From Rhodospirillales bacterium (lineage in GTDB: Bacteria; Pseudomonadota; Alphaproteobacteria; Rhodospirillales; UBA2165), in the NCBI GenBank assembly GCA_965207535.1, contig CBDBMR010000004.1, positions 18,788-82,787 on the forward strand: DNA of 64,000 nucleotides. Direction: 5' to 3'. Both the position numbers and the translations under genes were made by a program. The notes below the pieces were generated by a model. The model did not search any database, was not told the origin of the DNA, and saw only the letters and a program-made list of their open reading frames with translations. Below, piece by piece: positions 1,967 to 36,052 of the stretch (within the stretch, counting starts at the first letter, position 1; each line of letters starts with the position of its first letter).

Positions 1967-1970
1967 AAGT

Positions 1971-5611: not shown

Positions 5612-5630
5612 GCGCGTCCGGTAAATGTCT

Positions 5631-9144: not shown

Positions 9145-9245
9145 AATCTTGCTCCTCATGCTCTCGTTGATGACGATGGGTTCCGAACGGCCGGGGCCGG
9201 AACCTCTCTCCAGCCCCTTCCGCCCGCTTTCTTCCCGCTTTTCTC

Positions 9246-9377: not shown

Positions 9378-9493
9378 CGCTATCTCCTTTTAGCGGCGCC
9401 CGGGGATCGGACCGTGAGACCCTCTCTCCCGACCCTCCCGGGCATTCGCCTGGAAACCGCTTTCCTCCACCTCCCGCGCGGGCCCCCGGCGGT

Positions 9494-10513: not shown

Positions 10514-10608
10514 GGCCGTACTCCCTGTCGATATCGGATTCGGGATAGAAAAAGGCCAGCCGGCTGCCGACGCCGGTGGGCCGGCCGGACGTCCGATGGG
10601 GAAGGCGC

Positions 10609-10935: not shown

Positions 10936-11163
10936 CGTGCCGTCTCCGTGTTGCCGTGGGTGGGAACGGCGGCAGCGCCTCCCTCGGGGACACCAACCGC
11001 CGCCCCGTTTCCGGCCAAATTCCACTCTTATGGAGGCACACGCAGTCAGGTGGAAAATCCGGTTTGCGTCCGTACTGTGTCCGCAATTGAATTTGCGAGT
11101 TCCGCCAATACCCAGTCGCCTTAATGACGAGTTGAATTCAGGTGGATAGACTATCTGTACAGA

Positions 11164-17300: not shown

Positions 17301-19016
17301 ATATCCAGCGATGGGATCAAGGAAGTTGTCGAGTATGGTTGCCGGCTGTTCGCCGGGCTTGGCCCTGTCCATCTGAGAGACCAGCGCAAGACCCACGGCA
17401 TGGGAAACGAAATCGGGGTCGAATTCCAGCTCACCGTCCCGGTCGAGGGTGGCGAATATGCCGTCGATAACGCCTGAAACCCGGTGATAAACCTGATCCG
17501 ATGTTTGTATGGCCGAGGCGCTTAAGCTCTCGATGCGTTGACGTGTCGAGCGATTGCTTCCGTCTCTGTAGTCACGTGCCAGTTCCAGCAAGAACTGTCG
17601 CCATTCCGCCTCGCTGAAGGCACCGACCGATGCTTCTTGGATCGTGAATGCGCCGTAGGCCCAGAGAAGGCGATGGACGGTGACCTCTCCAACATCACCC
17701 AACTCCGACCTTAAACGGATGATGAGATCGAACATGCGCGGAATAGCGGCATGGTGAAGCAGCCGATCAGGCAAGTCGCCTCGGGAAAGGCCGGCGCCCT
17801 GCAGTTTCAGGTCCAATTCTCCGCCGGGTGTCAGATCGTAGTTTCCCACGTCGGTCCGATGGAGCGGAGCGATAAGGTTCGAAAGACGATGGAGCCGGTC
17901 CTCAAAAAAAGCGGTGCGCGTCGAAATCAGAGTTTGGACGCGTTGGTGGAAAGGAGCGTCTTCCAGCTGATGAAGGAGGCCGAGCCAATCACGCGAAGGG
18001 AGCTGGTTAATGCCATCGAAAAAGAGAAGGAACACATGGCCTTCATCGGCGGGCCGCGTTAGGAACCGTCCAACCCGTTTCTCCCAGTACAAAACGTCAC
18101 GCACTTCCGAAATATCGTGCAGGTACCGCGCAATCAAATGTAGCGCTTCATTTCCCCCGGAATCCGCGTGGCCAAGGGCTGAGGAGGGGGCGAGCACAAC
18201 TATAGGCAAGCTGTTTTGCCGATATTGCAGCCAATCCAGTGCAGCCCATGTCTTGCCCACACCTTCGGAGCCCACCAACGCCCCAACGGTGCCGTCATCA
18301 GAGCTATCGAGCCAAGAATCCAGGCTATCGATCAGGTTTGATCGGCGCACATGTCGTGCATTCTCGTCGCCGCCGGCCACATTCTGGCGAAACTTAGCCT
18401 GCGCCCTCCGACGCGAAGTCCAGATTTCTCGAAGGCGGCGATGACTGGAGTCTCGTACGGCGTCGTATCCGATCAACCAACTCTGGAGTTCTCTCTCGAT
18501 GAGTTGCAGCGTGGAAGCGTACTCTGGCAGTTCCGATATTCGCTTGAGAAGGGGCCTGTGTTGTTCGCCGAACTCGGTCGAAAAAAATTCCGGGCAGCTG
18601 GCGGCGAGAGCGGCAAGCCTCGGCAAAGGACGCGGCAACCAGTCGATCGAGACTGTGGCGATGCCATTGCTCAGGCCGACCTCGCCCATGGCATCCTGGA
18701 TCTGTTCAGGAACTTCTAGAGTCGTAACCAAGAGCCAAGCTTCGAGATCGGGGTGGCGTTTGCATGCCTGATCGATTTCACCGCGGATGCTTCGCTCGTC
18801 GAGCCTCGAGTTCGACCCGTAGCGGCGGGCCTCGAACACAAGGTATCTTCCTCCAATGCCTGATACACCCCCGTCGCCTCCTCTCTGGTTGCCGGAACGG
18901 GCCTGCCTGAATGGAACCCTCAGCAAGGCACCCAGGGCGAATCCTGCAAGTCGTTCGAGATGCTTCGGATCGGCTTCCAACAGGATCGAACGGAGTTGAT
19001 CGCACAAATCAGGCAT
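14349..19016 (-). CDS. Giant Mrr-like nuclease / STAND P-loop NTPase / long helical C-terminal region protein (Avs-like antiviral STAND candidate), 1,555 aa
   Basis: The ATG at 19016 is preceded by GGGGAG. N-terminus: LERLAGFALGALL...RGGDGGVSG...YLVFEARRYG...AWLLVTTLEVPEQ, which follows Mrr-cat logic (DGG-D ... E-x-K/R ... hhhTT). Walker A GSEGVGKTW lies at 18249-18272, and the Walker B-like motif is HVFLLFFDGINQL. More than 1,000 further residues carry no motif I recognise. Confidence 0.7.
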   Translation of the reverse strand: MPDLCDQLRSILLEADPKHLERLAGFALGALLRVPFRQARSGNQRGGDGGVSGIGGRYLVFEARRYGSNSRLDERSIRGEIDQACKRHPDLEAWLLVTTLEVPEQIQDAMGEVGLSNGIATVSIDWLPRPLPRLAALAASCPEFFSTEFGEQHRPLLKRISELPEYASTLQLIERELQSWLIGYDAVRDSSHRRLREIWTSRRRAQAKFRQNVAGGDENARHVRRSNLIDSLDSWLDSSDDGTVGALVGSEGVGKTWAALDWLQYRQNSLPIVVLAPSSALGHADSGGNEALHLIARYLHDISEVRDVLYWEKRVGRFLTRPADEGHVFLLFFDGINQLPSRDWLGLLHQLEDAPFHQRVQTLISTRTAFFEDRLHRLSNLIAPLHRTDVGNYDLTPGGELDLKLQGAGLSRGDLPDRLLHHAAIPRMFDLIIRLRSELGDVGEVTVHRLLWAYGAFTIQEASVGAFSEAEWRQFLLELARDYRDGSNRSTRQRIESLSASAIQTSDQVYHRVSGVIDGIFATLDRDGELEFDPDFVSHAVGLALVSQMDRAKPGEQPATILDNFLDPIAGYDVRAEILRAAVTIALLRSESESPAWLGTLCTRWLHSQNVPESHLGDLEVLAPALVTPMLDVIETSRGHSLTTARHIAIDVLAAVDKADPAVAATIAERVSRWLDCISLEKRGDEADRTDNSRYARRCKRLKERIGVAEPGTIAIACRNFEIVDYSGEDLIVAAAQLLQGRPLKDAVEFFVHGAIQIALVGSGAAQETQYWLNILNVVDPEETAAGLRSASQEIRSLPVEAGHHPKLNARIASILLWRTGYSEDAQEAWTMDPKIDHIFEYERDYLSDPARSYFRLERRHVARVLCDKTLAMFGRINKSKDALLDPSFQVPQDFIDELTVVSESFDFSQTATGRDRTSEDDQWKRLSLALARCNPDCLANCERARLRQFAERTPDQRFGSALAAPEVMLLVRDEESAALQTLRKQGHGESDDDELLIQTGLLIAEIQCASPIEQVTKILDSEIDPVFLGLGGVCHSPSASELDQLIALCGGDRRKLNRLASVLVEYELDLSETAFDALSELLFSTDSDGASEAAWALLGSNAAECLGHALDQRDWSWSCSQPHMVNIMGSRGIIASHRGRRFSDFAARIAPFLLLEALSREARLPDEAQLAVDLLSNALAQYQKDAPESGLDIFHDYEASSTGNYNFTIGEIVEDRDDGNDIRSLLERVNRPEQYEERRRTIIQSYINAVGQARQSGAQFLHTRFHADDFDQVLDLCPEALDRWLDGIDRLTDEFRRRVRLAEGFFVGLCEAVLKRDPSRGIPLWRALRECQSTRFIGLTGIDRLKFAPFMAPDCPAVESVLDELCDLDEARTDEDLLDIVVAARSSGRIDWLGQRISSDESSSCPAHRRRAAFLQPMFVRPTIAGDAEWPSGPSIGEYQDIHDDSWIMGQREAFAVHWFRKFAEADTAEAAHAFWRLFIACSDRRARTWMSQDYDQYAVGNGSLEDLKRRFVKQQRHAFKRAISDNEKSLQQTFTTQRVTKSLLPWRARKRSV

Positions 19017-19415
19017 ATGGACGCTCCCCTGCATACCGATCATTCCGGGTTGGCAGCTCGATCGTGTGCCAAACGTACCTGGAAATGCAGCGTCCTCGCT
19101 CGGATGCTGTTCCTATACGGTCTGTGTCCTATAACCGAAAATCCACAGCGCGGTGTCAAGACACGCTCAAGAGGCAACACGCGCGAGCCCTAGATCCAGG
19201 CAGTCATTAGGAACCTGTTCTAAGTACATAGTCACTAATCCCAAAGCCCGAACGATGTCGCCATCATCAGACAAGGTGACCGGACTTCGGTTATTCTGCA
19301 TTTATTTCTCCTGCTTGTGGTCAAATGATATTGATCTCTGTTTGTCTGGCGAGGAACTGGGGGTAGCAAGTGTGACGTGAGACTTAACTTCTCTCTAGTC
19401 ATGGGGAGAGACCGG

Positions 19416-19544
19416 TTCCGGGCGATAGTGTAGGAAGCAGGAGGTGACGGATCAATGCAGGGAGGCGCGCGCACCGGCAGCGTGACTTGCCCGGCCAGCA
19501 TCCTTTACGGAAGGCGTAAAACACAGTACGGTCGGCAAGCATGA
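19416..19544 (+). promoter_or_regulatory. Conserved leader motif copy 2 plus a 29-codon uORF overlapping the higB start (ATGA)
   Basis: Motif as at 6655..6703. The uORF runs from ATG 19455 to TGA 19542-19544 (MQGGARTGSVTCPASILYGRRKTQYGRQA), and its stop codon overlaps the higB ATG at 19541. Confidence 0.5.
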
Positions 19545-19819
19545 TTCGAAGCTTCAAGGATCGGGATACGCGCCGCTTCTTCGAGGGGCGGCGCGTCGCG
19601 GCATTCCAGGGCTTCGCCGGTCAGGCCGTGCGCCGGCTGATTTTGCTGGATGGCGCGGAGACGCTTGGCGACCTCGCCGCGCTGCCGAGCAACCGGCTCG
19701 AAGCGTTGCGCGGCGACCGCGCCGGTCAGCACAGCATTCGGATCAACGCGCAATGGCGTGTCTGCTTTCGTTGGACGGACGAAGGGCCGTGCGACGTGGA
19801 GATAGTGGATTATCACTGA
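19541..19819 (+). CDS. higB: HigB-family toxin (RelE/ParE superfamily, 'plasmid maintenance system killer')
   Basis: MIRSFKDRDTRRFFEG...LPSNRLEALRGDRAGQHSIRINAQWRVCFRWTDEGPCDVEIVDYH is the canonical HigB pattern. Confidence 0.85.
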   Translation: MIRSFKDRDTRRFFEGRRVAAFQGFAGQAVRRLILLDGAETLGDLAALPSNRLEALRGDRAGQHSIRINAQWRVCFRWTDEGPCDVEIVDYH

Positions 19820-19837
19820 GGGAGGAGGAGATTTGAC

Positions 19838-20143
19838 ATGAACGCCAGGAACGGAATGAGGCCGGTGCATCCCGGCGAAATCCTGCGCGGCGAGCTTGAT
19901 GAACTCGGGCTGTCGGCCAACGCGCTGTCGAAGGCGCTGGGCGTGCCGGTGAACCGGGTGACGATGATCCTGAACGGCCAGCGGGGCGTGAGCGCGGACA
20001 CGGCGCTGCGGCTGGCGCGGTATTTCGGGACGACGCCGCAACTTTGGCTGAATTTGCAGAAGACGTGGGAGCTTCGCCAAGCGGAGATCGCGGCGGGCCG
20101 GGAGATCGCGAAACGCGTGACGCCCCGGCAGTCGGCGGCGTAG
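19838..20143 (+). CDS. higA: HigA-family antitoxin (XRE HTH)
   Basis: SD GGAGGAGGAG upstream. MRPVHPGEILRGELDELGLSANALSKALGVPVNRVTMILNGQRGVSADTALRLARYFGTTPQLWLNLQ. Confidence 0.85.
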   Translation: MNARNGMRPVHPGEILRGELDELGLSANALSKALGVPVNRVTMILNGQRGVSADTALRLARYFGTTPQLWLNLQKTWELRQAEIAAGREIAKRVTPRQSAA

Positions 20144-20155: not shown

Positions 20156-22936
20156 ATGCGCCTGTCGTGGAACGAGGTTCGCGCCCGCGCCGCCGTCTTC
20201 GCCGAGGACTGGAAGGACGCGGCCTACGAAAAGGGCGAGACGCAGAGCTTCTACAACGCCTTCTTCGACGTGTTCGGAGTGCAGCGGCGGAACGTCGCCC
20301 GCTACGAGCAGCACGTCGCCAAGCTGGACAACCATTCGGGCTTCATCGACCTGTTCTGGCCGGGCGTGCTGCTCGTCGAACAGAAGAGCGCCGGGCGCGA
20401 TCTCCGCAAAGCCTACGAACAGGCCGGGGAGTATTTCGACGCGCTGCCGGAACGCGAGCGCCCGCGCTTCATCCTGGTGAGCGACTTCCGGACCTTCGAG
20501 CTGCACGATCTCGACGAGCGGGAGACCGCCGCCTTCCCGCTCGCCGACCTGCCCGCCCATGTCGAGTCGTTCGGCTTCATCCTCGGGGTGCAGCGCCGCA
20601 CATTCCGCGACCAGCACCCGGCGAACATCGAGGCCGCCGAACTGGTCGGGCGGCTGCACGACGCGCTCGACGCGGCCGGCTACCAGGGCCACGATCTCGA
20701 ACGCTTCCTGGTGCGGATCGTCTTCTGCCTGTTCGCCGACGACACCGGCATTTTCGAGCCGCGCGACATCTTCCTCGACTTCATCGAGACGCGGACGAGC
20801 GAGGACGGGGCCGACCTCGGGCCGTGGCTCGCGCAACTGTTCGAGGTGCTCGACACGCCGGAGGACGGGCGCGCGGCGACCCTCGACGAAGACCTCGCCC
20901 GGTTCCCCTACGTCAACGGCGCGCTGTTCGACGAACCGCTCAGGATTCCATCCTTCGACGCAGGGATGCGCGGGGCGTTGCTCGACGCCTGCCGTTTCGA
21001 CTGGTCGAACATCTCGCCGGCGATCTTCGGCGCGCTCTTTCAGTCGGTCATGGACCCGGCGGAGCGCCGCGCCCAGGGGGCGCACTACACGACCGAGAAG
21101 AACATCCTCAAGGTGATCGAGCCCCTGTTCATGGACGACCTGCGGGCCGAATTCGAACGCCTGAAGGCGCGGCGCGACAACCGCCGCCGGCCCGACCTGC
21201 TGCGCTTCCAGGAACGGCTCGGCGCACTCCGCTTCCTCGACCCGGCCTGCGGCTGCGGCAACTTTCTCATCATCGCCTACCGGGAATTGCGGCTGCTCGA
21301 AATCGAGGTGCTGAAGGAGGTGTACGCCAGCGGCCAGCTCGACGCCCTGGCGGAGACGCTGTCGCTGGTGGACGTAGATCAGTTCTACGGCATCGAGCTT
21401 GGCGAGTTCCCGGCCCGCATCGCGGAGACGGCGCTGTGGATGATGGACCACATCATGAACAACCGGCTGAGCCTTGCGCTCGGTGAAACCTTCGTCCGCA
21501 TTCCGCTCGAGAAGTCGCCCCACATCGTCCACGGCGACGCGCTGGAAACCGACTGGGCCGAACTGCTGCCGCCGGGCGATTGCTCGTTCGTGCTGGGCAA
21601 TCCGCCGTTCGTGGGCTCCAAGTACCAGACGGCGGAACAGCGCGCCCAGGTGCGCGAAATTGCCGCGCTCGGCAAGAGCGGCGGCACGCTCGATTACGTC
21701 GCCGCGTGGTTCATCAAGGCGGGCGAGTATGTGAAGGGCGGCGGGGCCCGGATCGGCTTTGTCGCCACCAACTCGATCACCCAGGGCGAACAGGTGGCGC
21801 AGCTATGGCCGGTCCTGTTCGAGCGCTGCAAGCTGGAGATCGCCTTCGCCCACCGGACCTTCGCCTGGGGATCGGACGCGCGCGGCAAGGCGCATGTGCA
21901 TGTGGTCATTCTCGGCCTCGACCGGCGGGAGGCCGCGCGGGCGGAGAAGCGGCTGTTCAGCTATCCCGACATCAACGGCGACCCGGAGGAAAGCCGTCAC
22001 GCGGCGCTGTCGCCGTACCTGTTCGATGCGGGCGGGTTGTCCGACCCGCATTTGGTGGTGCGGGAGGAAAGCGGGCCGATCAATGGGATGTCACAGCTTC
22101 TCACCGGCTCACAGCCAATCGACGATGGGCAATACATTTTCGACGCGGCGGAACGCGCCACGTTTTTGGAGGCGGAGCCGGACGCCGCGCCGTGGCTTCG
22201 GCCTTTCATCGGAGCGCGGGAATACTTGCAGGGCGCCGAGCGGTGGATTTTGGCGCTGCACGACGCGCCGCCCGAAGTGCTGTCGCGGCTGCCCCAAGTG
22301 CGGGAGCGGATCGCTGCCGTTCGGGCGTTTCGGCGGGAAAGCAAACGCAAATCAACCTTGAAGCTGGCCGACACACCGACGCTCTGGCAGGTCAACGTGC
22401 TTCCCGACGCGCCGTTTCTGGTGATTCCGGAAGTCAGTTCGGAACGCCGGGAGTACGCGCCCATCGGCTGGCTGGAGCCGCCGGTCATTCCGAGCAATCT
22501 CGTGCGGATTCTGCAAAACGCGAGCTTGGCCAATTTCGCGCTGCTCACGTCGTCCATGCACATGGCGTGGCTGCGCCATATCGGCGGACGACTCAAGAGC
22601 GACTACCGCTACTCCATCGGCCTCGTCTACAACACCTTTCCGCTGCCGCCCAAGGACTCGAACCTGTCAAAATTGGGGCCGCTCGCCCAGGCCGTGCTGG
22701 ACGCCCGCGTCGCTCATCCGGGCGCGACGCTCGCCGACCTCTACGACCCGGACCTGATGCCGCCGAACCTGCGCCGGGCGCATCAGGCGCTCGACCGCGC
22801 CGTGGACCGGCTCTACCGGCGCTCGGGGTTCGCGTCCGAGCGCGAGCGCGTCGAACATCTGTTCATGCTGTATGAGAAGATGCGGGCGCCCTTGGAAATC
22901 GGTATGAAGAGGAAACCACGCCGACGGCGAAAGTGA
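20156..22936 (+). CDS. MmeI-family type IIL/IIG restriction-modification enzyme (N-terminal PD-ExK nuclease fused to an N6-adenine methyltransferase and a target-recognition domain)
   Basis: Nuclease motif: FIDLFWPGVLLVEQKSAG, giving D65-X9-E75-X-K77. Helical spacer: ERFLVRIVFCLFADDTGIF. SAM motif I: FLDPACGCGNFLI. Catalytic motif IV: LGNPPFVG. At 926 aa it has the single-polypeptide size typical of this family. The start lies 12 nt after the higA stop codon. Confidence 0.8.
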   Translation: MRLSWNEVRARAAVFAEDWKDAAYEKGETQSFYNAFFDVFGVQRRNVARYEQHVAKLDNHSGFIDLFWPGVLLVEQKSAGRDLRKAYEQAGEYFDALPERERPRFILVSDFRTFELHDLDERETAAFPLADLPAHVESFGFILGVQRRTFRDQHPANIEAAELVGRLHDALDAAGYQGHDLERFLVRIVFCLFADDTGIFEPRDIFLDFIETRTSEDGADLGPWLAQLFEVLDTPEDGRAATLDEDLARFPYVNGALFDEPLRIPSFDAGMRGALLDACRFDWSNISPAIFGALFQSVMDPAERRAQGAHYTTEKNILKVIEPLFMDDLRAEFERLKARRDNRRRPDLLRFQERLGALRFLDPACGCGNFLIIAYRELRLLEIEVLKEVYASGQLDALAETLSLVDVDQFYGIELGEFPARIAETALWMMDHIMNNRLSLALGETFVRIPLEKSPHIVHGDALETDWAELLPPGDCSFVLGNPPFVGSKYQTAEQRAQVREIAALGKSGGTLDYVAAWFIKAGEYVKGGGARIGFVATNSITQGEQVAQLWPVLFERCKLEIAFAHRTFAWGSDARGKAHVHVVILGLDRREAARAEKRLFSYPDINGDPEESRHAALSPYLFDAGGLSDPHLVVREESGPINGMSQLLTGSQPIDDGQYIFDAAERATFLEAEPDAAPWLRPFIGAREYLQGAERWILALHDAPPEVLSRLPQVRERIAAVRAFRRESKRKSTLKLADTPTLWQVNVLPDAPFLVIPEVSSERREYAPIGWLEPPVIPSNLVRILQNASLANFALLTSSMHMAWLRHIGGRLKSDYRYSIGLVYNTFPLPPKDSNLSKLGPLAQAVLDARVAHPGATLADLYDPDLMPPNLRRAHQALDRAVDRLYRRSGFASERERVEHLFMLYEKMRAPLEIGMKRKPRRRRK

Positions 22937-22990
22937 TGACTTTTTTGCGATGGTCTTGGTTTGGCTTGGCGGATCACGAGAACGAATCCG

Positions 22991-24091
22991 ATGGATAAAA
23001 GCTATCTCTGGCCGAGTACGCTTCTTTTGCCGGTACGACCCCCAAAGATCGTATACCTAGATTTGAATCATTGGATCACTCTGGCGCAAATCGCCTCTGG
23101 CAGCCGTGATGGAGCAAGAGATAAGGAAATCCTTACCTTTTGCTTTACTTCTGCCGACAATGGGGACGCTATTTTTCCGATTTCACTAAGCATTTTTACG
23201 GAAATACTTAAGACAAAGAACCGTCAGATACGCCTAAATCTCCGTAAAGTCATTGAAAGGCTGAGCCAGTACATGGTTGTGACAAACCGGTTCGTAGTCG
23301 CAACTCATGAAATTGAAGCTCTCCTGGACAAAAAGGTCGGCCCTAATCCTGTACCGATCAACACGATGGATTACCTGGATTGGGGCGTATTTTGGGCTTT
23401 GGGTATTGATGGTGGCATTAGGGTCAGGTCAGAAGCCGGCGAAGACGTTACAGCCACAGTTCGTCAATCGTTTACCGGTGGCCCGAAAGCGTTCGATAAG
23501 ATGGTGAATAATGCGGGATTGGAGCTGAATCGACAGGTGCTCGATGGTCCACCGCCGGACGAAGAGCTTGAATTTCGACGACTAGGTTACAACCCCGAAG
23601 CGATACTTGAGTTGTATGATCGTGAAGCTACATACGAAGCGGAGTGGGCACGTCTACTCGACAAAAACTCGAAATGGAGGCGTGGTCGCCTGAGCGATCT
23701 TGTTTCAGCCCGAGAAGTAGCTTTTCATATCAACAGCATTCTCAAGAGAGGATGTAATGAGCGCAATATTGACTCTCTCCAATGTCTGTTTTCTTCAGTC
23801 GAAGATACACGCAATGCGTTCAATTCCATGCCCAGCTTCGATACCTCGGTGACGTTAAAGACATTTATTCACCGAAATGGCAGCCATCGTTGGAGCAATA
23901 ACGATATTCATGACATTCATGCTTTAGCGGTAACGTTGCCGTATTGCGATATTGTTGTGACTGATCGTGCAATGGCATCACAGGCGATACAATCCAAATT
24001 GGCTGAAAAATTGAGTACGGTAGTGCTTAGCAAGCTTTCCGATCTTCCCAAACATGGCGTAATTCCGGCGTTCACTCCCCTGGGCCTATGA
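22991..24091 (+). CDS. Hypothetical protein with possible split PIN-like termini (366 aa)
   Basis: Lower-GC gene. The N-terminus PKIVYLDLNHWITLA resembles PIN strand 1 with its Asp. The C-terminus NDIHDIHALAVTLPYCDIVVTDRAMA resembles the last PIN acidic residue. About 300 residues in between are unassigned. The start is uncertain (ATG at 22991 or TTG at 22961). Confidence 0.4.
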   Translation: MDKSYLWPSTLLLPVRPPKIVYLDLNHWITLAQIASGSRDGARDKEILTFCFTSADNGDAIFPISLSIFTEILKTKNRQIRLNLRKVIERLSQYMVVTNRFVVATHEIEALLDKKVGPNPVPINTMDYLDWGVFWALGIDGGIRVRSEAGEDVTATVRQSFTGGPKAFDKMVNNAGLELNRQVLDGPPPDEELEFRRLGYNPEAILELYDREATYEAEWARLLDKNSKWRRGRLSDLVSAREVAFHINSILKRGCNERNIDSLQCLFSSVEDTRNAFNSMPSFDTSVTLKTFIHRNGSHRWSNNDIHDIHALAVTLPYCDIVVTDRAMASQAIQSKLAEKLSTVVLSKLSDLPKHGVIPAFTPLGL

Positions 24092-25490
24092 TGCGGGGTC
24101 GTGGGCGCCGCGCCCCGTTAGGCTAAGCAAGGAGAGTGACCATGGGTGAGTACGTTGGCTTTGATGTTTCGAAGGAAGAGACAGCATTTTGCGTGAAGGA
24201 CGGTGCAGGAGAGATTTTGGCGCAAGGCAAGGCGGAGACCGACCCTCGGGCGTTGTTTGAGGTGTTGAAGGAGCATTGTCTGTGTCCGGATCGGATTGTT
24301 CTGGAGACCGGGACACTGTCGGGCTGGCTGGCACGGAGTCTGGACGAGATGGGGATTGCGGTGGAAGTGATCGATGCCCGCCAGGCCCATGCGGTGATGC
24401 GTCTTCAACACAACAAGACCGATGCCAAGGACGCCGAGCTTCTGGCGGAGATCGCGCGCACCGGCTTCTGCCGCCCTGTATCGGTGAAGAGCGAGTTGGC
24501 CCAGGAGAGTCGGGTTCTGCTCAAGGCTCGGTCTCACCTGGTGCGCCAGCGCCGCGATACTCACAACACGATCCGGGGTCTTCTTGCCTCGTTGGGGATC
24601 CGTTTTCCCAAGGGCACGAGCAAGCTGCTCCGCGGAGTGCGCGCGCAGCTCGAGGACCGTCCCGAGCTACGCCCGGCGATTGCGCCGTTGCTGTCCTCGC
24701 TCACGGCGCTGGACAGCACGATTGCGGAGCTGGATGAGGCGGTCGCTGCGCGCGTCAAGGACGATCCGGCCTGCCGCCTGCTGATGACCGTGCCCGGAGT
24801 CGGACCGCTCACGGCGCTGGCCTATGTGAGTACCATCGGCGACGCCGGGCGCTTCGCCCGATCGCGCAGCTTGGGCGCTTATCTCGGGCTGACCTCCAGA
24901 CGTTGGCAATCGGGCGAGATGGATTACAGCGGGTGCATCTCCAAGCACGGCGACGCGATGCTGCGCAGCTTATTGTACGAGGCCGCCAACAGCCTGCTTG
25001 TGGTGGTGCGCCGGGCCCATCCGCTCAAGGACTGGGCGCGGCGGATCAAAAAGCGGACCAGCCACAAGAAGGCCTGCGTGGCCCTGGCGCGCAAGCTTGC
25101 GGTGATCCTCCATCGCATGTTGATCACTGGCGAGCCGTTCCGCTGGCCGGCCCGAGAGATTCAGGCGGCATGAGTGAGAGAACGGACTGCGTAGACGACG
25201 GTAACGAGCACGAGGAGACAACATAGTTCCGCACGAGCGGAAAGGCGCGTCCCCGCCGGGACGTCGGCCGAGGCCATCCCGTTTTATGTGTTGCAAGGCG
25301 GCTCAGGCCGCCAACAATGCGTCCTCTGACCCTGGGAGGCCGAAGCCAAAGGGCACCATCATGAAGCAAGCCAGCCAGAGCGCCGGCAAAGACTTCGTAG
25401 ACAACCCTGTACCCGGCGGCGGCAAGCCCGGAGGAGTTGACCCGAACGCCGGAATTAGACAACACATTTAGAGCGATGGGGGTTATGACG
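24092..25490 (+). mobile_element. IS110-family insertion sequence (IS1111-like layout: short 5' end, long 3' non-coding end); boundaries approximate
   Basis: The high-GC block begins right after the stop codon of the low-GC upstream gene and ends where the low-GC sequence resumes, near 25480-25500. Only 44 nt precede the transposase ATG, while about 300 nt follow its stop codon. Confidence 0.6.
24136..25173 (+). CDS. IS110-family transposase, full length (345 aa)
   Basis: SD AAGGAGAG upstream. N-terminus YVGFDVSKEETAFCV carries the first Asp of the DEDD motif. C-terminus: LMTVPGVGPLTALAYVSTIGDAGRFARSRSLGAYLGLTSRRWQSGEMDYSGCISKHGDAMLRSLLYEAA...KKACVALARKLAVILHRML. Confidence 0.9.
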   Translation: MTMGEYVGFDVSKEETAFCVKDGAGEILAQGKAETDPRALFEVLKEHCLCPDRIVLETGTLSGWLARSLDEMGIAVEVIDARQAHAVMRLQHNKTDAKDAELLAEIARTGFCRPVSVKSELAQESRVLLKARSHLVRQRRDTHNTIRGLLASLGIRFPKGTSKLLRGVRAQLEDRPELRPAIAPLLSSLTALDSTIAELDEAVAARVKDDPACRLLMTVPGVGPLTALAYVSTIGDAGRFARSRSLGAYLGLTSRRWQSGEMDYSGCISKHGDAMLRSLLYEAANSLLVVVRRAHPLKDWARRIKKRTSHKKACVALARKLAVILHRMLITGEPFRWPAREIQAA

Positions 25491-26386: not shown

Positions 26387-26758
26387 TTAGGACAGACCTA
26401 TGGCTTCCTTGCCCAATTCAACCAAACACGCCTTTAGCACATCGAATGCGAGGCCGCCCGTTGTTTCAAGGCATTTCTCCTTTGCCTTCTTCCAAATTGT
26501 ATCGTTTCGGGCAGCATCCAAAAAATCATGACCTTCCCATGTCATCCCGTAGATCTCGCACCGCGTGATCCTGTGGGCGCGTCCGTCACCGCTCGGAATG
26601 GTAACCCCTTTGACCAGCCCATGTTCGATCATGAGTTCTACATGAAGCTTGGTTTCCTCCTCGCTGTGGCCGGTAACATCAAGTTTGATTTCCTTTCCGG
26701 GATCGGTCGCTTCGATCTGCAAAAGGATTCCACGGACAAGGTCCATATTTCGTTTCAT
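26387..26758 (-). CDS. DUF2513-family protein (winged-helix-like)
   Basis: The ATG at 26758 is preceded by AGGGGG. MKRNMDLVRGILLQIEA...HVELMIEHGLVKG...ITRCEIYGMTWEGHDFLDAARNDTIWKKAKEK matches the usual DUF2513 opening and core. Confidence 0.6.
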   Translation of the reverse strand: MKRNMDLVRGILLQIEATDPGKEIKLDVTGHSEEETKLHVELMIEHGLVKGVTIPSGDGRAHRITRCEIYGMTWEGHDFLDAARNDTIWKKAKEKCLETTGGLAFDVLKACLVELGKEAIGLS

Positions 26759-26886
26759 GCAAACCCCCTGTCGGTCTTCGGCTTTTTGACCCCGAACATC
26801 ATGATCGCGGTTAGCGCGGTAGGGGGACAACTTTGCGATGATTCGGCCCAAGGTCAACGGTTTCCCGGATCGACAGGGGGTCTCGA

Positions 26887-28095
26887 TCAAAGCTGGCGGT
26901 CCCGGTCCAACCGAGGAGGTGGGCGGGACGATGTCCGGCCGCATGGGAGGCGCATCGCCTCGGCGATCAAGCTCCCGACCTTCTCCGCCGCCTCGACCAG
27001 ATGGCCGTCGTCAAGGTGGGCGTATCCCGCCGTGGTCTCGTACCGCCGGTGACCGAGCAGCTTTCCGACCAGCGCCAGGTTCTCACCCGCCATGACGGCC
27101 TGGCTGGCCGCCGTGTGGCGCAGGTCGTGCAGGCGCAGGCGGCCAAGCCCCGCATCTTCACAGACCGTCCGCCAGCAGTTCGTGAGAACCCAGATTCCCC
27201 GGCCTTCGGCATGGCGCGGAAACAGGAACGCATCCGGGTCGCCAGGACCGGGCAGCACCTCGATGAGCGCCCGCGCGGCCTCGCCGAGCGGCACGGCGCG
27301 CGGGCCGGTTTTCGAATCTTCGAGGTTCAACGCATCCGCGCTGACATTGCGCCAGCGCAGATTCAGAACTTCGCTGCGGCGGCACCCGGTCAGGGCCAGC
27401 AGCCGGATCGCAGCGACGGCCTCGGGCCAGCGGTCCTCATGGGCGTCGAGCGCACGCCCGAGTCGCGTCAGTTCATCGGTATCGAGGAACCGCGCGACCT
27501 TCTTCCTCGGGTTCTTCCGGATACCCAGGCAGGGGTTGGTGTCCCGCTCGCGCATTCCCCACTCCTCGGCCCGGAACATCATCGCGCGCAGGATCTCGAG
27601 CGCGCGGTTGGCCGCGCCGGGTTTGTCCCTGCTCGCCGCGTCGAACCACGCGGCCACGTCCTCCAGACCGATTTGGTCGAGAGGCATCCTGCCGAACGTG
27701 GGCAGGATGCGGGCTTTCAGGTAGATGCGCACGGTCCTGCGCCCGGAGGGCTTCCAGTGCGGATCGCAGCGCCGCAGATACTCGTCTGAAAACTCCCGCA
27801 GCGTCGGGGTCTGCTTGTCTTTCTGGATGTCGTCCGCGGGATTATCGCCCGCGCGGATGCGGGCGAGCATGTCGCGGGCGCGGCGGCGGGCCTCCACGAG
27901 CTCCATCTCTCCATGCCGGGCGATGACGATGCGGCGGCTCCGCCCCTCGATGCGGGCCTGCACGATCCAGATCTTGCTGCCCGAGGGATGGATGCGAAGG
28001 CCGAAGCCGGGCAAAGCCTTGTCGAACAGGATGGTGTCCTTCGGGCCGGGCCGGCTCGCGCGGGCCAGCTTCGCGGTAAGATCAACCCTTGGCAT
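26887..28095 (-). CDS. P4-type tyrosine integrase (DUF4102 arm-binding N-domain), downstream member of an overlapping pair
   Basis: The ATG at 28095 is preceded by GGGAGAG. N-terminus: FDKALPGFGLRIHPSGSKIWIVQARIEGRSRRIVIARHGEM. Catalytic residues: LTGCRRSE, LHDLRHTAAS, LGHRRYETTAGYAHL. Confidence 0.85.
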   Translation of the reverse strand: MPRVDLTAKLARASRPGPKDTILFDKALPGFGLRIHPSGSKIWIVQARIEGRSRRIVIARHGEMELVEARRRARDMLARIRAGDNPADDIQKDKQTPTLREFSDEYLRRCDPHWKPSGRRTVRIYLKARILPTFGRMPLDQIGLEDVAAWFDAASRDKPGAANRALEILRAMMFRAEEWGMRERDTNPCLGIRKNPRKKVARFLDTDELTRLGRALDAHEDRWPEAVAAIRLLALTGCRRSEVLNLRWRNVSADALNLEDSKTGPRAVPLGEAARALIEVLPGPGDPDAFLFPRHAEGRGIWVLTNCWRTVCEDAGLGRLRLHDLRHTAASQAVMAGENLALVGKLLGHRRYETTAGYAHLDDGHLVEAAEKVGSLIAEAMRLPCGRTSSRPPPRLDRDRQL

Positions 28096-29272
28096 GATCG
28101 CACTCTCCCTTGTTCTTCGCACCGTTTCCGGCCAGGGCCGCATGGATGCGGTTCGATACCCGGTCGGCGGCGTCCGTGACCGACCGGTCCGACAGATGGA
28201 CGTATCGCTCGGTCGTCTCGACCAGCGAATGGCCCAGCAGCTTGGCGATGGTCACCATGTCCAGGCCGTTCATGGCCGCGATCGAAGCCCAGCTATGGCG
28301 CAAATCGTGCAGCCGCAGACCGGGCAGTCCGGCCTCGGCGCGGATGCGGTTCCAATGGGACGCGATGTTGTCGATGGGCCGCGTCGGCGGACGGACGGGA
28401 AACAGATACGGGCAATCCTCGCCATAGCGCGGGATGGCGTCGATCACGGCCCGCGCCGCGCTCGACAGCCAGACCGTACGCGGACCCGACTTCGAGTCGG
28501 GAAGGAATATCCGCTTGCCCTTGATCCAGTCCCATTCGAGCGAGGCGATTTCGCCGAAGCGGCAGCCGGTCAGCATCAGCAAACGGATGACGGCGACGGC
28601 CTGGGGGCAATAGAACTCGTCGCGGGTGAGCACGGCGTTAAGCCGGGCCATCTCCTCGGCGTCGAGGAACCGCTCCTTCGGCTCCATCCTGTATCGTTTG
28701 GCGTTCTTGCACGGATTGGAGTTGTGCCGGCGGTATCCCCAAAGCTCGGCCATGCGCATCATCATGGACAGCACCGGCATGGCGCGGTTGGCGACGCCGG
28801 GCCGCCCGGCCATGGACGCGAACCAGTCCTTGACGTGCTCGGACGCGATGGCGTCCACGGTCAGATGACCGAAGGCGGGCAGGATGTCCTTGCGGACCAT
28901 GTAGGCGTTGGTCTCCTGGGTCCGGGGCTTCCAGTGCCGGGCCTGCCGGTCGAGGAATTCCTCCGCGAAGGCATCCATCGGATGCCCCGGCGTCCTGGGG
29001 CCGCCGCCGTTCTTCACCGTTTCGGTGAAGGCGGCAATCAGCCTGCGGGCTTCGGCGCGCGCCTCCGGGACCGTCATGGTCTCGGCATTGCCCACGGTGG
29101 CGTAGCGCCTGCGGCCGCGCAACGTGGTCTCCAGCGTGAAGCTGCGCGCGCCGCTCGGGAAGACACGGAGCCTCAGGCCGGGCACCGCGTCGTCGCGGAC
29201 GTCGAAGCGCTTGTCGCGGGGCTTGGCGGCGCGGACGCGCCGGGCGAAGGTGGATTTGGTCTGCTCGCTCAT
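28082..29272 (-). CDS. P4-type tyrosine integrase (DUF4102 N-domain), upstream member of the overlapping pair
   Basis: SD GAGGAG upstream. N-terminus: VRDDAVPGLRLRVFPSGARSFTLETTLRGRRRYATVGNAETM. Catalytic residues: LTGCRFGE, LHDLRHSWAS, LGHSLVETTERYVHL. Its stop codon at 28082-28084 lies 14 nt inside the next integrase ORF. Confidence 0.85.
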   Translation of the reverse strand: MSEQTKSTFARRVRAAKPRDKRFDVRDDAVPGLRLRVFPSGARSFTLETTLRGRRRYATVGNAETMTVPEARAEARRLIAAFTETVKNGGGPRTPGHPMDAFAEEFLDRQARHWKPRTQETNAYMVRKDILPAFGHLTVDAIASEHVKDWFASMAGRPGVANRAMPVLSMMMRMAELWGYRRHNSNPCKNAKRYRMEPKERFLDAEEMARLNAVLTRDEFYCPQAVAVIRLLMLTGCRFGEIASLEWDWIKGKRIFLPDSKSGPRTVWLSSAARAVIDAIPRYGEDCPYLFPVRPPTRPIDNIASHWNRIRAEAGLPGLRLHDLRHSWASIAAMNGLDMVTIAKLLGHSLVETTERYVHLSDRSVTDAADRVSNRIHAALAGNGAKNKGECDHAKG

Positions 29273-30264
29273 GATCGCGGCTCCTCGTTCAGGCCGCGCG
29301 GCTGAGCCGTAGGACAGGAAGCAGCCGCGGCGGCGTTTCGTCGGGGAAGCCGCGCGGCGGCGCGGGACGGGACGGGCCGTAAAGCCCTGTAATCACCGAA
29401 CTTTTCGTCCCAACAAGGGGTGGCGGGCGCTGGCGGGAAGTGCACCTTCGGTGCGTCAGGTGTGACGAAACAACCGCTCCGCGGTCCAGAAGGCTAAAAT
29501 CGTGCAGCGATTTTTGTGGGGGAATCGCCGCCGGCGAGAGCGGCGGCGGCGGTGTCCACACCGGTGCGGATAGAGAGAAGACGGGACCGGAATCGGTGAA
29601 CGGGATCGGGTGGTGACGTGGCGGGGCGACGATGCGTCGGCGGCAGCCAGATGGTTGCAGGCGCCGCGGCGGCATCGGCCGGGACGGACGACGGCGATAT
29701 TGAGCGGATGAGATGATGGCCGAACGGCCGATATCTCGCCGCCGCCCGCCCTCGGCTGCCGGCGCCTCTGGCGTCCGGGTCACCGGCATGGAGCCTGGGC
29801 GGTGAAAATCGCGGTCGGCACGCCCGGCACATGGGCCTGGGCCTCGGCCTCGCCGGGTTGTTCGGCCCGGTGCCTGTCGCCGGCGGAGGACCATCGAAAG
29901 CGGCATCGCCCCCATAATCGCGCTGTTGGCGACAGGACGGCGATACACATGACGGCGGGTGGCGGGCCGACGGCACGTGCCGGAAGCCGCCGCGAGCCCG
30001 GCCCCCGGGCACATCCTGCCGGAATGGGCCGTCGAGACGCGGGCCGCTAGACGCGCCCCGGAAGAACTGTTCTTCTCGGCGGCCGGTGAAGCGGAGCTGC
30101 GATACGGCGCGGCAATGGGCTGCGCTCGACCGGCCGGGCGCTACGATCACGGTCGGGCAATTCGGCAATCAAGAGCGCGCGCTGGAGTTTGATTAAACCG
30201 CCGTTGCTTTCAGGGGACGAACTCAACTAGGGTACCGGCATCGCAGCCACGGGCGCCAATCGTC

Positions 30265-32634: not shown

Positions 32635-34014
32635 CTATTCCCAGGCGGCCAGCGAGACGATCTCCACCTGGCCGCGGTCGATCCTCTGGAAGGCGAGCCA
32701 GGCGGCGACCTCCATCTCGTCGTCGAGGACGGCAAGCGGCTCGTCGGCGCCGCGCAGGAACACGGCGTAGCGCGGCGGATAGTCCGCGACCTCGCGGAGG
32801 GCGTTGAGATCGACCTTGGCGTACACGGCGGTGGCCGACGGGCTGCGATGGCCGAGAAAGTCCCCGATCTCCTTCATCGACATGCCCTGGTCGAGGAGAT
32901 GCCGGGCAGCGGCATGGCGCAGCGCGTGAGGCCCGCGGGGGCCGTCGACGACACCGACCCGCCGCAGACGGTTGCGGACGATGCTTGCCATCACACCCCG
33001 GCTGAGCGGTCGGATCGGAGCGAAGAGCGTGAGGAAGAGGGTGCGTTCGGGGCGCGGCGGACGAACTTCGAGAATGTAGCGGAGAATGGCCTGTCCAACG
33101 CCCCGGGACAGGGGGAAGATATGCGTCCGGCCGGACTTGGAGCGGTGCACGCGCAGCGTCTCGTTCTCCCAGTCCAGGTCATCCAGTTGCAAGCGGCCGA
33201 CCTCGCCCGAGCGCAGCCCGTAGGCGACCAGCAGCATCAGGATGGCGCGGTCGCGCTTGTCGACCGCCCGCTCACCCTCGGTAGTGGCCAACAGGCGCTC
33301 GACATCCTCCCGGCTCAGCCCCGCCGGCACCGGATCGGTCGGATAGACCCGCGGAGGGATCATCGCGGCGGCTATCCCCGGTCTGCACCAGCCGCGATCC
33401 TCGGCAAAGCGGAAGAACCCGCGAATGCATCCCGCGTACCGCCTTATCGAACTCCGGCTGTAGCGCCCGGTGGCGCTCTTCGCCACGATGGCGGTGTCGA
33501 CATCCGTCAGAGTGACGGAGGAAAGCGATACATCATTGGCATCCAGCCGGTCGAAGAAGTTATCGAGGTCGAGGCGGTACAACCGGATCGTCGACTCCGA
33601 CAACCCGCGTTCTTCGCGCATCCATGCCCCATAGGAATCGAGTTCGGCACGGTGGGGAGGCTGGGCCATCGGCGGCTCTTCGAGCCAACCGAGAAAGCGC
33701 AGCCACCGAATCGCACCTCGCACCACGCGCTTTGCCGACGCCGGTGAAGTCGGCACCGTCCGGTGGTACCTGTGATCCCCGGGACGCGACCATTCCGCGA
33801 TCGCAGCCTCGAGCTGGGGAATGCTGACCGTGTCGCCTGCCTTCAAATCCAGAAGATGGACCAGACGGGTCTGTTCCATCGCGGTGAGGCGCAACGTCCG
33901 CCGGCTGGCGCCCGATTGCGCGAGATGGTCGAGATAGCTCAGCCGCTGATCGGCGAGCGGCGCTGTTTGGTGCTTCTCAAGTGCTTGCGGCGTCGTGAAT
34001 AGTTCTTCGAACAT
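32635..34014 (-). CDS. XerC/D-like tyrosine recombinase (459 aa) fused in frame to a ~50-aa YPP...DDEMEVAAWLAF tail homologous to the zinc-ribbon protein C-terminus
   Basis: The ATG at 34014 is preceded by AAGGAG; the upstream 209 codons of ORF 32635..34641 were rejected. Catalytic residues: LLVAYGLRSGEV, PHALRHAAARHL, LGHRSPSATAVYAKV. The tail YPPRYAVFLRGADEPLAVLDDEMEVAAWLAFQRIDRGQVEIVSLAAWE follows directly. Confidence 0.8.
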   Translation of the reverse strand: MFEELFTTPQALEKHQTAPLADQRLSYLDHLAQSGASRRTLRLTAMEQTRLVHLLDLKAGDTVSIPQLEAAIAEWSRPGDHRYHRTVPTSPASAKRVVRGAIRWLRFLGWLEEPPMAQPPHRAELDSYGAWMREERGLSESTIRLYRLDLDNFFDRLDANDVSLSSVTLTDVDTAIVAKSATGRYSRSSIRRYAGCIRGFFRFAEDRGWCRPGIAAAMIPPRVYPTDPVPAGLSREDVERLLATTEGERAVDKRDRAILMLLVAYGLRSGEVGRLQLDDLDWENETLRVHRSKSGRTHIFPLSRGVGQAILRYILEVRPPRPERTLFLTLFAPIRPLSRGVMASIVRNRLRRVGVVDGPRGPHALRHAAARHLLDQGMSMKEIGDFLGHRSPSATAVYAKVDLNALREVADYPPRYAVFLRGADEPLAVLDDEMEVAAWLAFQRIDRGQVEIVSLAAWE

Positions 34015-34070
34015 GATCGTCTCCTTTTTGCTGGAGCCATGATCATGTCCACCGTGTAGTGCTGTGAAAA

Positions 34071-34256
34071 TTATGTTGACTTCAACTTCGTCGATGACCC
34101 GCCAGAGACCGGGGTCCGTCGCCGCCGCAACATAATCGGCTGCGCAACATATGAGCGGTAGGTCTCGACCACATAGCGGTCGTCTTCGAGACCGCCGCCG
34201 ATGAAGTGGGTGAGGAACGTGCGCGCGTCGCCGCGCGGTGCGATTGCCGCCTGCAT
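34071..34256 (-). pseudogene. Truncated paralogue of 10609..10935
   Basis: SD GGAGG upstream. The first ~36 codons align with the 108-aa protein; after ETYRSY the sequence diverges and stops. Confidence 0.5.
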
Positions 34257-34452
34257 GATGTCGCCTCCGTCTCGCTTGATGATGGTGAACGGCGGCCGAT
34301 GCCCTCCCCGGGCATCCGGCCACCGCCCCGTTCACGGCCAAGCCTCTCCTCTTTATGGAGAAGAGCACGGGGATGGAGACGGCGACGGAATGGCCGACGC
34401 GGAATTCATCGGTTTTCATTGATGTGCGTACCGGCATGCGGTACGGATAGCC

Positions 34453-34731
34453 ATGATCCGGAGCTTTCGTCATCGAGGCCTCAAGCGGATGTATGAGCGA
34501 GGAGATAGGAGAGGGGTGGGATTCGATCTCTTGGATCGTATCGCGCTGGCGCTGGCCGACCTCGACGACGCGGGCAAACCCTCCGACCTCAATCTGCCTG
34601 GCTATCGGATTCATCCGCTGAAGGGCAATCTCAAGGGGCACTGGAGCATCTCAATTTCAGGAAACTGGCGGGTGACCTTTCGCCTCGAGGACGGAGACGT
34701 ATACGATGTCGACTTGGTCGACTATCACTGA
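34453..34731 (+). CDS. higB: HigB-family toxin (second copy)
   Basis: [18 protein letters not shown]...[45 protein letters not shown]. Confidence 0.85.
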
Positions 34732-34745
34732 CGGGAGCCAAGAGT

Positions 34746-35042
34746 ATGCCGATGATCGATCCTCCCCATCCTGGACGAAGCGTCCGCGAAAACTGTCTGG
34801 AACCGCTAGGCTTGAGCGTGACCGAGGCGGCGCGTGTGCTCGGCGTTGCCCGTCACACACTGTCCCGGGTGCTGAATGGCCACGCAGGGATTTCACCTGA
34901 AATGGCGATCCGCCTCGAAAAGGCGGGCTGGTCAAATGCCGAATTCTGGTTGCGGCGCCAGACCACCTACGATCTCGTCCAGGCGCGGAGACACGAGGAC
35001 CAAATCGCGGTGCGGCGTTATCAGCCACATGCGGCGGCATGA
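34746..35042 (+). CDS. higA: HigA-family antitoxin (second copy, XRE HTH)
   Basis: [72 protein letters not shown]. Confidence 0.85.
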
Positions 35043-35173: not shown

Positions 35174-35932
35174 CTACCGGAACCGCGCGTCATCGAGTTG
35201 CCGATAGGCGTCCGTATTCTTTAATTTGCCGTTGCCTTTAGCCAGATCGAAGGGGACCCGGCCGCGTTGGTCTCGCGTCGCGGGGTCCGCCCCGGCATCA
35301 AGCAAGGCGTTGACGGTTTCGGCGGAGCCGAACCTCACCGCCACGTGCAGCGGGGTTAGGCCATGTACGGTTCGCGCTTCGATATCGGCCCCGGCATCAA
35401 ACAAGGCGTTGACGGTCTCGGCGGTGCCGGCCACCGCCGCCGCCACGTGCAGCGGGGTCTGACCGTCTTTGGCTCGCGCTTGAATGTCGGCCCCGGCATC
35501 AAGCAAGGCGTTTATGGTCTCGGCGGAGCCGAGCGCCGCCGCCATGTGCAGCGGGGTCAGGCCGTTTAGGTCTCGCGCCTCAATGTCCGCCCCGGCGCGA
35601 AGCAAGGCGTTGACGGTCTCGGCGGTGCCGAACCCCGCCGCCCCGTGCAGCGGGGTCAGGCCGTTTACGTCTTGCGCGTCGATGTCCGCCCCGGCGCGAA
35701 GCAAGGCGTCGATGGCCTCGACGGCGCCGGCCCCCGCCGCCATGTGCAGCGAGGTCAGGCCATGTTCGGCTCGTGCTCCAATGTCCGCCCCGGCATCAAG
35801 GCACCGCTTCACATCCGCGCCGGCGGCGGTTTTGAAGAACGCCTTTGTGTTCCACGACGCGCAATCGGGTTGCGCATGGGCCGGGCCGGTCAGGGCCAAG
35901 GCAAGCGCACTGGCGGCAAGCAGTCGAAGCAT
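35174..35932 (-). CDS. Secreted ankyrin-repeat protein (about six ANK repeats)
   Basis: ATG at 35932. Signal peptide: MLRLLAASALALALTGPAHA. Repeats have the form GLTPLHMAAxxGxAETVNALLxAGADIxAR. Confidence 0.85.
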   Translation of the reverse strand: MLRLLAASALALALTGPAHAQPDCASWNTKAFFKTAAGADVKRCLDAGADIGARAEHGLTSLHMAAGAGAVEAIDALLRAGADIDAQDVNGLTPLHGAAGFGTAETVNALLRAGADIEARDLNGLTPLHMAAALGSAETINALLDAGADIQARAKDGQTPLHVAAAVAGTAETVNALFDAGADIEARTVHGLTPLHVAVRFGSAETVNALLDAGADPATRDQRGRVPFDLAKGNGKLKNTDAYRQLDDARFR

Positions 35933-36052
35933 GGAGGGTCCTTTCAGCCTATTCGGTTGGAGTGTGCACTTCGCCGGAGTGTTTTCCTTGAAGCGGCCTT
36001 GGACCGTCCGCACCCCTTCGCGCGCAGGGGATGTTCCCGCAACAGAGATCGT

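Follow-up and report, generated by a model that had tools for sequence, protein, structure and literature searches.

Why should a bacterial island carry two complete integrase genes that share part of their coding sequence? The question is raised by a 64,000-nucleotide stretch of DNA, hereafter the window, from a Rhodospirillales bacterium (contig CBDBMR010000004.1 of assembly GCA_965207535.1, positions 18,788 to 82,787), in which intA and intB, each encoding a tyrosine integrase of the P4 type, follow one another on the same strand (Table 1). An earlier note on this DNA, written from its letters alone, had wondered whether the pair acts as a heteromeric or two-site system or marks the collapsed junction of tandem islands. 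Based on attachment sites, gene content and related loci, we identify intA-intB as the integration module of a site-specific mobile island of approximately 23 kb, at one end of which it is located. With a probability of roughly 0.6, we consider intA-intB a two-gene integration module whose products act jointly, most likely as a hetero-oligomer.

The listing of open reading frames (ORFs) and the sequence agree in placing the TGA of intA inside the intB reading frame, giving an overlap of 14 nt, with the Shine-Dalgarno (SD) sequence GGGAGAG located 8-14 nt 5' of the intB ATG within the 3' end of intA. If the longest start is taken, the ORF ending at 26887 spans 26887-28143 on the minus strand; we set the start of intB at 28095 because this ATG, together with the N-terminus MP(R/T/S/K)V(D/E)LT, recurs in all related loci. 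IntA, IntB and a third integrase of the window, Int3, share the domains Arm-DNA-bind_3 (PF13356, formerly DUF4102), Phage_int_M/SAM_3 and Phage_integrase, and the E-values for Arm-DNA-bind_3 (2.6e-09, 1.6e-13 and 3.9e-13, respectively) are all above the Pfam cut-off. Alignments revealed the catalytic residues R, K, HxxR, H and Y in all three proteins. The earlier note was thus correct on two intact P4/DUF4102-type integrases with a 14-nt overlap, on the intB start with its internal SD and on the catalytic residues of all three enzymes. By domain content IntA and IntB are assigned to the DUF4102/IntSXT subgroup. As IntA, IntB and Int3 are only 35-40% identical to one another (38% for IntA versus IntB), they are old paralogues rather than recent copies.

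A search for relatives yielded 1460 homologues of IntA, of which the best 120 were 74-92% identical. We inspected 6 metagenome and 47 genome loci, with flanks of 10 kb available around each; the genome loci stem from metagenome-assembled genomes (MAGs) labelled Rhodospirillales, Defluviicoccus, Thalassobaculaceae, Paracoccaceae, Ca. Binatia, Thermodesulfobacteriota, Acidobacteria, Nitrospirales, Ca. Foliamicus and Pseudomonadales. An IntB orthologue followed IntA in every locus with a complete intA and enough downstream sequence (47 genome and 6 metagenome loci). The ATG-N8-TGA overlap together with a purine-rich SD was found in 39 related loci (approximately 33 non-redundant) from at least seven bacterial lineages, so that the arrangement is not unique to the genome of the window, and no core-like attachment site was detected within or between intA and intB across the loci searched for the core. 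This conserved layout, lacking an att site between the genes, is in line with the suggestion of the earlier note that the overlap reflects translational coupling, which we infer, rather than two independently accreted islands. IntA was nearly always 396 aa long; the C-terminus of IntB varied in length (384-416 aa), and some loci contained frameshifted integrase copies.

The order A-then-B is kept in distant pairs that are overall about 30-48% identical to IntA/IntB. Such pairs occur in several of the inspected loci (L019, L026, L028, L032, L039, L057 and L060), where they are 36-48% identical to IntA/IntB, the upstream gene being nearer to IntA and the downstream gene nearer to IntB. The same order was found in one IMG/VR contig and in pairs of cultured bacteria, namely on the megaplasmid of Shewanella oneidensis MR-1 and on a plasmid of Aurantiacibacter atlanticus; these two plasmid pairs overlap by 4 nt (ATGA-type), as do several other distant pairs. 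In a neighbour-joining tree the A side and the B side stood apart, with one pair of distant A-like genes poorly resolved. Apart from obviously disrupted copies, all six catalytic residues (R-K-H-R-H-Y) are kept in both clades, distant pairs included. Pairwise ratios of nonsynonymous to synonymous substitution (dN/dS) were 0.15-0.45 for IntA and 0.19-0.27 for IntB, indicating that both genes are under purifying selection. The identity matrices of IntA and IntB were correlated (r = 0.67; Mantel test, 0/5000 permutations), indicating co-inheritance of the two genes. Matches to IntA on enterobacterial and Pseudomonas plasmids were single integrases of approximately 29% identity and were set aside as not relevant.

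Near-identical integrase pairs were also seen in MAGs of different phyla. The low synonymous divergence between classes (approximately 0.5-0.6, for instance between the window and a gammaproteobacterial copy) suggests recent cross-phylum transfer of the pair. Several of the MAG names resemble sponge-microbiome bins; the records themselves state no habitat.

Where, then, does the pair integrate? The earlier note had found no tRNA or tmRNA gene beside it, and this was confirmed: ARAGORN detected none in the window, Rfam gave no match in the window at gathering thresholds, and permissive Rfam scans revealed no tRNA-like fragment near either island end. That this absence is an anomaly was not borne out, given that DUF4102 (IntSXT-subgroup) integrases also use non-tRNA targets and the tRNA expectation covers only part of the subgroup (PMC8138268), and that the island has a 14-nt att repeat of its own. 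The repeat, TCACACCTGACGCA, is an exact direct repeat that the window contains in exact form just twice, once 5' of intA and once far 3' of intB (attL and attR, Table 1), a match count reached in 0 of 100 shuffles. As the repeat lies at both ends and homology to other loci breaks off at both copies, the island is delimited to approximately 6485-29465. Its GC content (0.51-0.58) is lower than that of the flanks (0.65-0.70). Repeat analysis of the window detected no second class of terminal repeat.

A core of the form C[A/T]CACC-NN-ACGCA is located approximately 190 nt 5' of intA in most loci and recurs in the same orientation 4-11 kb 3' of intB. At its inner side a perfect 5-bp palindrome, GCAxC-N2-4-GxTGC, was present in 44 of the 54 distinct sites, in three covarying versions, compared with a frequency of 0.35% in shuffled tails; it was seen in the left ends of elements as well as in target flanks. 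As judged from these sites, the att core is asymmetric, with the invariant CACACC on one side and the covarying palindrome on the other.

The two arms of the island share the 16-mer GGAAGCCGCGCGGCGG, of which the window holds exactly two perfect copies, one per arm and mutually inverted; these are candidate arm-type sites for the N-terminal arm domains of the integrases. The right-end segment (213 nt) was 76-88% identical in 27 loci and has a GC hairpin, TTGGTTCT and the core at its end. In every one of these loci but one, where it is inverted, the segment is found 3' of intB and terminates at the core. Its interpretation as a structured RNA was rejected, covariation in RNAalifold being nearly nil (2 of 41 pairs compensatory). 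We read it as probable protein-binding arm DNA combined with an inward-facing region of ribosome-binding site (RBS) and promoter. At the inner edge of the segment (6655-6715 and, in an internal copy, 19416-19476), a conserved RBS-like GGAGGT followed by ATG faces into the island, and the cargo gene behind it differs by locus (higB in L030 and L039). This edge looks like a common expression signal for whichever gene occupies the right end.

Comparison of related loci revealed the core as the point of exchange. Loci L004 and L059 share with L006 the same islet, composed of IntAB, MmeI and HigBA and encoding an identical IntA protein, while their left flanks differ and diverge at the core: in one context an SSB-Toprim-YAcAr backbone lies to the left, in the other there are chromosomal genes (Iron_traffic, SnoaL). 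An integrative mobile island is characterized by the occurrence of one element in different flanks with the breakpoint at the core, and on this sequence evidence we class the element as such. The converse was found for L059 and L060, which come from different samples. Their ICE-type backbones (ICE, integrative and conjugative element) are 100% identical over positions 1-11228 (AAA_34 helicase, Gp49/HTH, SSB, Toprim, YAcAr) up to and including TCTCACACCCCACGCA, and diverge completely thereafter. Past the core, L059 continues into IntAB and L060 into a second pair lineage, with proteins of 380 and 436 aa, a 4-nt overlap, and 42% and 48% identity to IntA and IntB, respectively; the palindrome with which the left end of the L060 islet begins is of the GCATC...GATGC version. 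That different pair islets follow one and the same backbone indicates that islets were recently exchanged at a single docking site.

Tandem or nested arrays of pair-bearing units were common across the loci, some of the units being decayed. The junction in which YAcAr, core and intA follow one another may reflect tandem units, an assembly that is circular or permuted, or a docking site borne by an ICE. In three loci (L019, 7274-9582; L032, 7289-9726; L026, 4737-7269) distant pairs adjoin the core of an IntAB unit and point the other way, so that two intA-type genes diverge from one region of approximately 420 nt; in L026 a core lies on the minus strand.

The joint or heteromeric action of IntA and IntB that we infer could proceed as follows. 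Translation of intB would be coupled to that of intA at the overlap, setting a fixed IntA:IntB ratio. The two proteins would then work jointly, the most probable form being an XerC/XerD-like mixed tetramer on the asymmetric core, with one enzyme on the invariant CACACC side and the other on the side of the covarying GCAxC...GxTGC palindrome, although this assignment of sides is speculative. Strand exchange would take place within the identity block CACACC-NN-ACGCA because the block of identity between attL and attR stops before the variable positions of the palindrome. The N-terminal arm domains would bind GGAAGCCGCGCGGCGG-type sites in the arms of approximately 180 and 200 nt, which flank the core in the excised form, and thereby organize the complex. 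The junction of the excised circle is expected to read ...TTTGGTTC-TCACACCTGACGCA-CCGAAGGTGCA..., and CTCACCCCACGCATCCAGGATGC would be an example of an attB for the proposed reaction. The core would be regenerated on both sides at integration, so that further pair-bearing islets could dock beside resident ones, and such docking would build tandem or composite arrays beside ICE-type backbones (SSB-Toprim-YAcAr ... TrwC). In its most far-reaching form, the proposal is that two arm-binding P4-type integrases constitute an obligate hetero-oligomer, that an old XerCD-like split of strand exchange operates here in a lambda/P4-style intasome, and that core and palindrome together serve as a portable docking site at which different pair-bearing defence islets could replace one another, both next to ICE backbones and in the chromosomes of bacteria of several phyla; we advance this form tentatively, as having somewhat less than an even chance.

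Several observations weigh against the reading as a jointly acting integration module. A recombination directionality factor (RDF) was not identified: the gene after intB differs between loci, and no excisionase or RDF gene is conserved beside the pair. Neither an excised circle nor an empty site of the island was found, the IntA of the window being missing from the contig collection, and the sole metagenome match to the exact left-junction 31-mer (L056) is not an empty site; there, the end of a YAcAr-type backbone occupies the flank side of the core, and the island side holds an AAA_15/21 ATPase gene without integrase pair. B-like singletons exist (Int3 and an Int3-like gene in L036), and a B-type enzyme may therefore work alone. 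Finally, many of the supporting loci are MAGs, some of them from error-prone long reads, and several loci represent one contig entered twice.

The singletons and the lack of a conserved RDF gene speak for the idea that the labour is divided by direction, one integrase integrating (attP x attB) and the other excising (attL x attR) or biasing excision, with no mixed complex being formed. FimB and FimE, with their directional bias, provide a likeness, or such a division might stand in for a classical excisionase, and it suits this idea that IntA and IntB are each a complete integrase with its own arm domain. However, stoichiometric co-production would better explain the coupling geometry and a gene order that has stayed fixed across deep divergence, and an overlap of 14 nt leaves no room for a second promoter or regulatory feature between the genes, for which reasons we regard a directional split as unlikely. 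The enzymes might instead recognize different att sites and so form a two-site system, serving either alternative targets or the islet as opposed to the larger composite ICE. The nesting of islets beside ICE-type backbones, the existence of at least two left contexts (YAcAr end and chromosomal flank) and the three palindrome variants next to the core are compatible with this. Nevertheless, in dozens of loci as well as in the window, both unit ends are occupied by a single core family, CACACC-NN-ACGCA, which also serves a second pair lineage; a two-site system is disfavoured by this sharing, as well as by the lack of a second terminal-repeat class, and we would give it only about one chance in ten.

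If one member were an accessory paralogue, degenerating or non-catalytic (for instance with a DNA-bending or regulatory role), and were kept merely by its operon position, this would account for the variable length of the IntB C-terminus and for the frameshifted copies in some loci. Such a role is very improbable considering that both clades, down to the distant pairs, keep the six catalytic residues, that dN/dS is low and similar for both genes, and that disruptions usually hit both genes, some of them possibly being long-read sequencing errors. The collapsed junction envisaged by the earlier note would be an accident of accretion, in which two independent islands came to lie side by side and the intervening DNA with its att site was deleted. 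Although tandem arrays of whole units do occur among related loci, the identical 14-nt overlap and SD in 39 loci across phyla and the A-then-B order of pairs that are only about 30-48% identical rule this out for practical purposes; we give it next to no credence. The order of the distant pairs, the kept catalytic residues, the low dN/dS and the co-inheritance of the two genes, which have no core-like site within or between them, lead us to reject a collapsed tandem-island junction together with a recent duplication and a decaying copy. Joint action remains our preferred reading of the pair.

Table 1. Coordinates of the integrase pair, island ends, cargo and third integrase in the window.
Feature	Position	Strand	Description
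intA	28082-29272	minus	396-aa A-type arm-binding tyrosine integrase (Pfam domains)
intB	26887-28095	minus	402-aa B-type arm-binding tyrosine integrase (Pfam domains)
Coupling junction	28082-28109	minus	SD GGGAGAG 28103-28109, intB ATG 28093-28095, intA TGA 28082-28084
attL core TCACACCTGACGCA	29452-29465	minus	180 nt 5' of intA ATG; homology to all related loci begins here
attR core TCACACCTGACGCA	6485-6498	minus	exact direct repeat of attL; right-end homology to other loci stops here
Palindrome GCACC-GAA-GGTGC (5 bp)	29442-29454	minus	overlaps inner end of attL core
Palindrome GCAGC-AG-GCTGC	6476-6487	minus	spans attR core end and right flank
Left arm (intA 5' region)	29273-29451	minus	highly conserved across loci; candidate arm-type site CCGCCGCGCGGCTTCC at 29345-29360
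Right arm ("seg")	6499-6697	minus	candidate arm site 6643-6658, hairpin GACGCC-TTTC-GGCGT 6506-6520, TTGGTTC, then core
Left flank	29466-29549	minus	remnant of YAcAr-type backbone right end; YAcAr gene itself missing
DUF2513	26387-26944	minus	first ORF after intB, cargo
IS110 (complete)	24136-25173	plus	cargo
376-aa partner of MmeI-type restriction-modification	22961-24091	plus	cargo
MmeI-type IIG restriction-modification gene	20156-22936	plus	cargo
HigBA	19541-20143	plus	cargo
Truncated internal copy of inner part of right-end segment	19416-19490	minus	repeat D7, alignment; 5' of higB
1564-aa protein	14349-19043	minus	cargo; low-GC part, among defence-type genes
DUF4145	11164-12099	minus	cargo
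SSB	8668-9249	minus	cargo
YAcAr/DUF2493	6977-7909	minus	cargo
Int3	38164-39318	minus	intact B-like singleton (Pfam); B side of tree

The cargo was annotated using Pfam and PADLOC; the 1564-aa protein had no match in Pfam, NCBIfam or PADLOC. A truncated copy of the right-end segment inside the island shows that the island is composite. The window itself is composite as well, its left flank being a remnant whose sequence adjoins YAcAr in L056 and L001. On the right, the flank shows synteny with L022 and L042, in which a 213-aa gene and a TrwC relaxase come after the islet. In the window the TrwC-type relaxase (1971-4781, plus strand) is without the first approximately 60 positions of the profile, being truncated by the IS110 fragment in front of it, a partial transposase of that family (1086-1889, plus strand); the conjugative backbone beside the island is therefore degraded.

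Int3, which the earlier note had counted as a third integrase 9 kb away, is indeed intact and has its catalytic residues, but it is not part of the system of the pair: it has no partner gene, and the genes upstream of it (FAD monooxygenase, LigB, LysR) are those of chromosomal aromatic catabolism. No repeat of at least 12 nt that could serve it as att site was shared between the region upstream of Int3 and 29.5-38.2 kb. Judged by these surroundings, Int3 belongs to another element, outside the pair and the island. A fourth tyrosine recombinase of 668 aa (32635-34641, minus strand), absent from the list of the earlier note, has an XerD-like SAM_1 domain and catalytic part in residues 335-611, preceded by an N-terminal extension of 330 aa without Pfam match; over its last approximately 55 residues it matches the C-terminus of a backbone protein (9494-10636) with 48% identity. 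A second toxin-like ORF with an HTH_3 antitoxin-like gene lies at 34453-35042 (plus strand), and its toxin part shares approximately 72% DNA identity with genes located just inside the right-end segment in L019, L021, L024 and L026. A 99-nt periodic repeat (35253-35840) within the ankyrin-repeat gene 35174-36013 corresponds to ankyrin units of 33 residues and is not a separate feature.

Genome annotation treats each DUF4102 integrase as stand-alone, and island finders expect one integrase beside a tRNA. The family described here breaks both habits, with its fixed diverged pair, its short non-tRNA core and the tandem or nested arrays that it often forms next to conjugative backbones. It appears to carry restriction-modification and toxin-antitoxin cargo between distant bacteria, which bears on the spread of defence genes in the source communities of the MAGs. 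If a mixed complex is indeed formed, the pair would offer a compact model of arm-binding integrases that split the two strand exchanges between paralogues, and a recombinase pair with a defined target of approximately 25 bp might become a tool. An obligate hetero-oligomer would, moreover, be of such age that a 13-bp core is still common to at least two pair lineages of 42-48% identity. We rate the interest of the pair as moderate, and as higher should the heteromer be confirmed.

How does the pair relate to described systems? No NCBIfam model is specific to IntA or IntB, and RefSeq labels the pairs of cultured bacteria simply as two integrases. Full-text literature searches returned no described DUF4102 A/B integrase pair; subscription journals lay outside their coverage, so that an earlier description is possible. 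Like the P4-type/IntSXT subgroup, IntA and IntB have arm-binding, SAM-like core-binding and catalytic domains in this order with R-K-H-R-H/W-Y residues, and the island has short terminal direct repeats and integrase genes near one end reading inward. Known members are single genes, often with a separate excisionase, whereas here diverged paralogues are always encoded together; and many of them target tRNA genes, tmRNA genes or the ends of conserved genes, whereas here the target is a short non-tRNA core with a small palindrome. Insertion at the 3' end of a tRNA or tmRNA gene is typical of the P4 cluster but not of the subgroup as a whole. With XerC/XerD the pair shares two paralogues that are catalytically competent by sequence and, in the working model, a single asymmetric site. 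Xer proteins, however, lack an arm-binding domain. Their genes do not normally lie together, and their task is to resolve chromosome dimers, mobile elements merely borrowing the enzymes. Membership in the XerC or XerD equivalogs was rejected, the scores for TIGR02224/TIGR02225 being 42-58 bits against NCBIfam cut-offs of approximately 330.

Other recombinase groupings differ in composition, although Tn554 and GInt offer a precedent for neighbouring tyrosine recombinases that are all indispensable. In Tn554, TnpA and TnpB are adjacent tyrosine recombinases that are both needed for movement of the element (PMC3414803); going by their description only, Tn554 and the actinobacterial pairs are set apart by a third gene, tnpC, and, in the actinobacterial pairs, by one abnormally long member, whereas IntA and IntB are both approximately 400 aa long with arm domains. 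The ginABCD recombinase operon of GInt, all genes of which were shown by mutation to be essential for excision and integration (PMC5385486), likewise lies at the 5' end of a cargo island with direct repeats, which in GInt are imperfect and 10-17 nt long. It comprises three recombinases and a small helix-loop-helix protein, GinC is without some of the catalytic residues, and no DUF4102 domain is reported. The pair was not classed as GInt, having two recombinases only and no conserved fourth gene. RIT elements contain overlapping co-oriented tyrosine recombinases that fall into position-specific families (PMC3414803), but they are compact trios of approximately 3.5 kb with terminal inverted repeats and without cargo, whereas here two genes, direct repeats and kilobases of cargo are found. 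RIT membership was rejected on gene number, the next ORF (DUF2513) not being a recombinase and the downstream neighbours differing between loci. BIM membership was also rejected, a BIM being one recombinase with an unrelated protein (PMC3414803). A "XerCD-like pair" of recombinases is assumed to integrate ICEPmu1 and ICEMh1 jointly (PMC6861422). The joint role is an assumption there too, and the likeness is one of description only; unlike the island studied here, these ICEs insert in tRNA-Leu.

The arrays formed by pair-bearing units recall the accretion of ICEs and cis-mobilizable elements (CIMEs). In the ICESt1/ICESt3-CIME model, regenerated att sites let elements accrete beside resident ones. 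SXT tandem arrays, cited in PMC5587801, are an example of accretion. Pair-bearing units form tandem and composite arrays too, presumably in the same way, with the difference that each unit brings its own integrase pair and that different pair lineages share one core.

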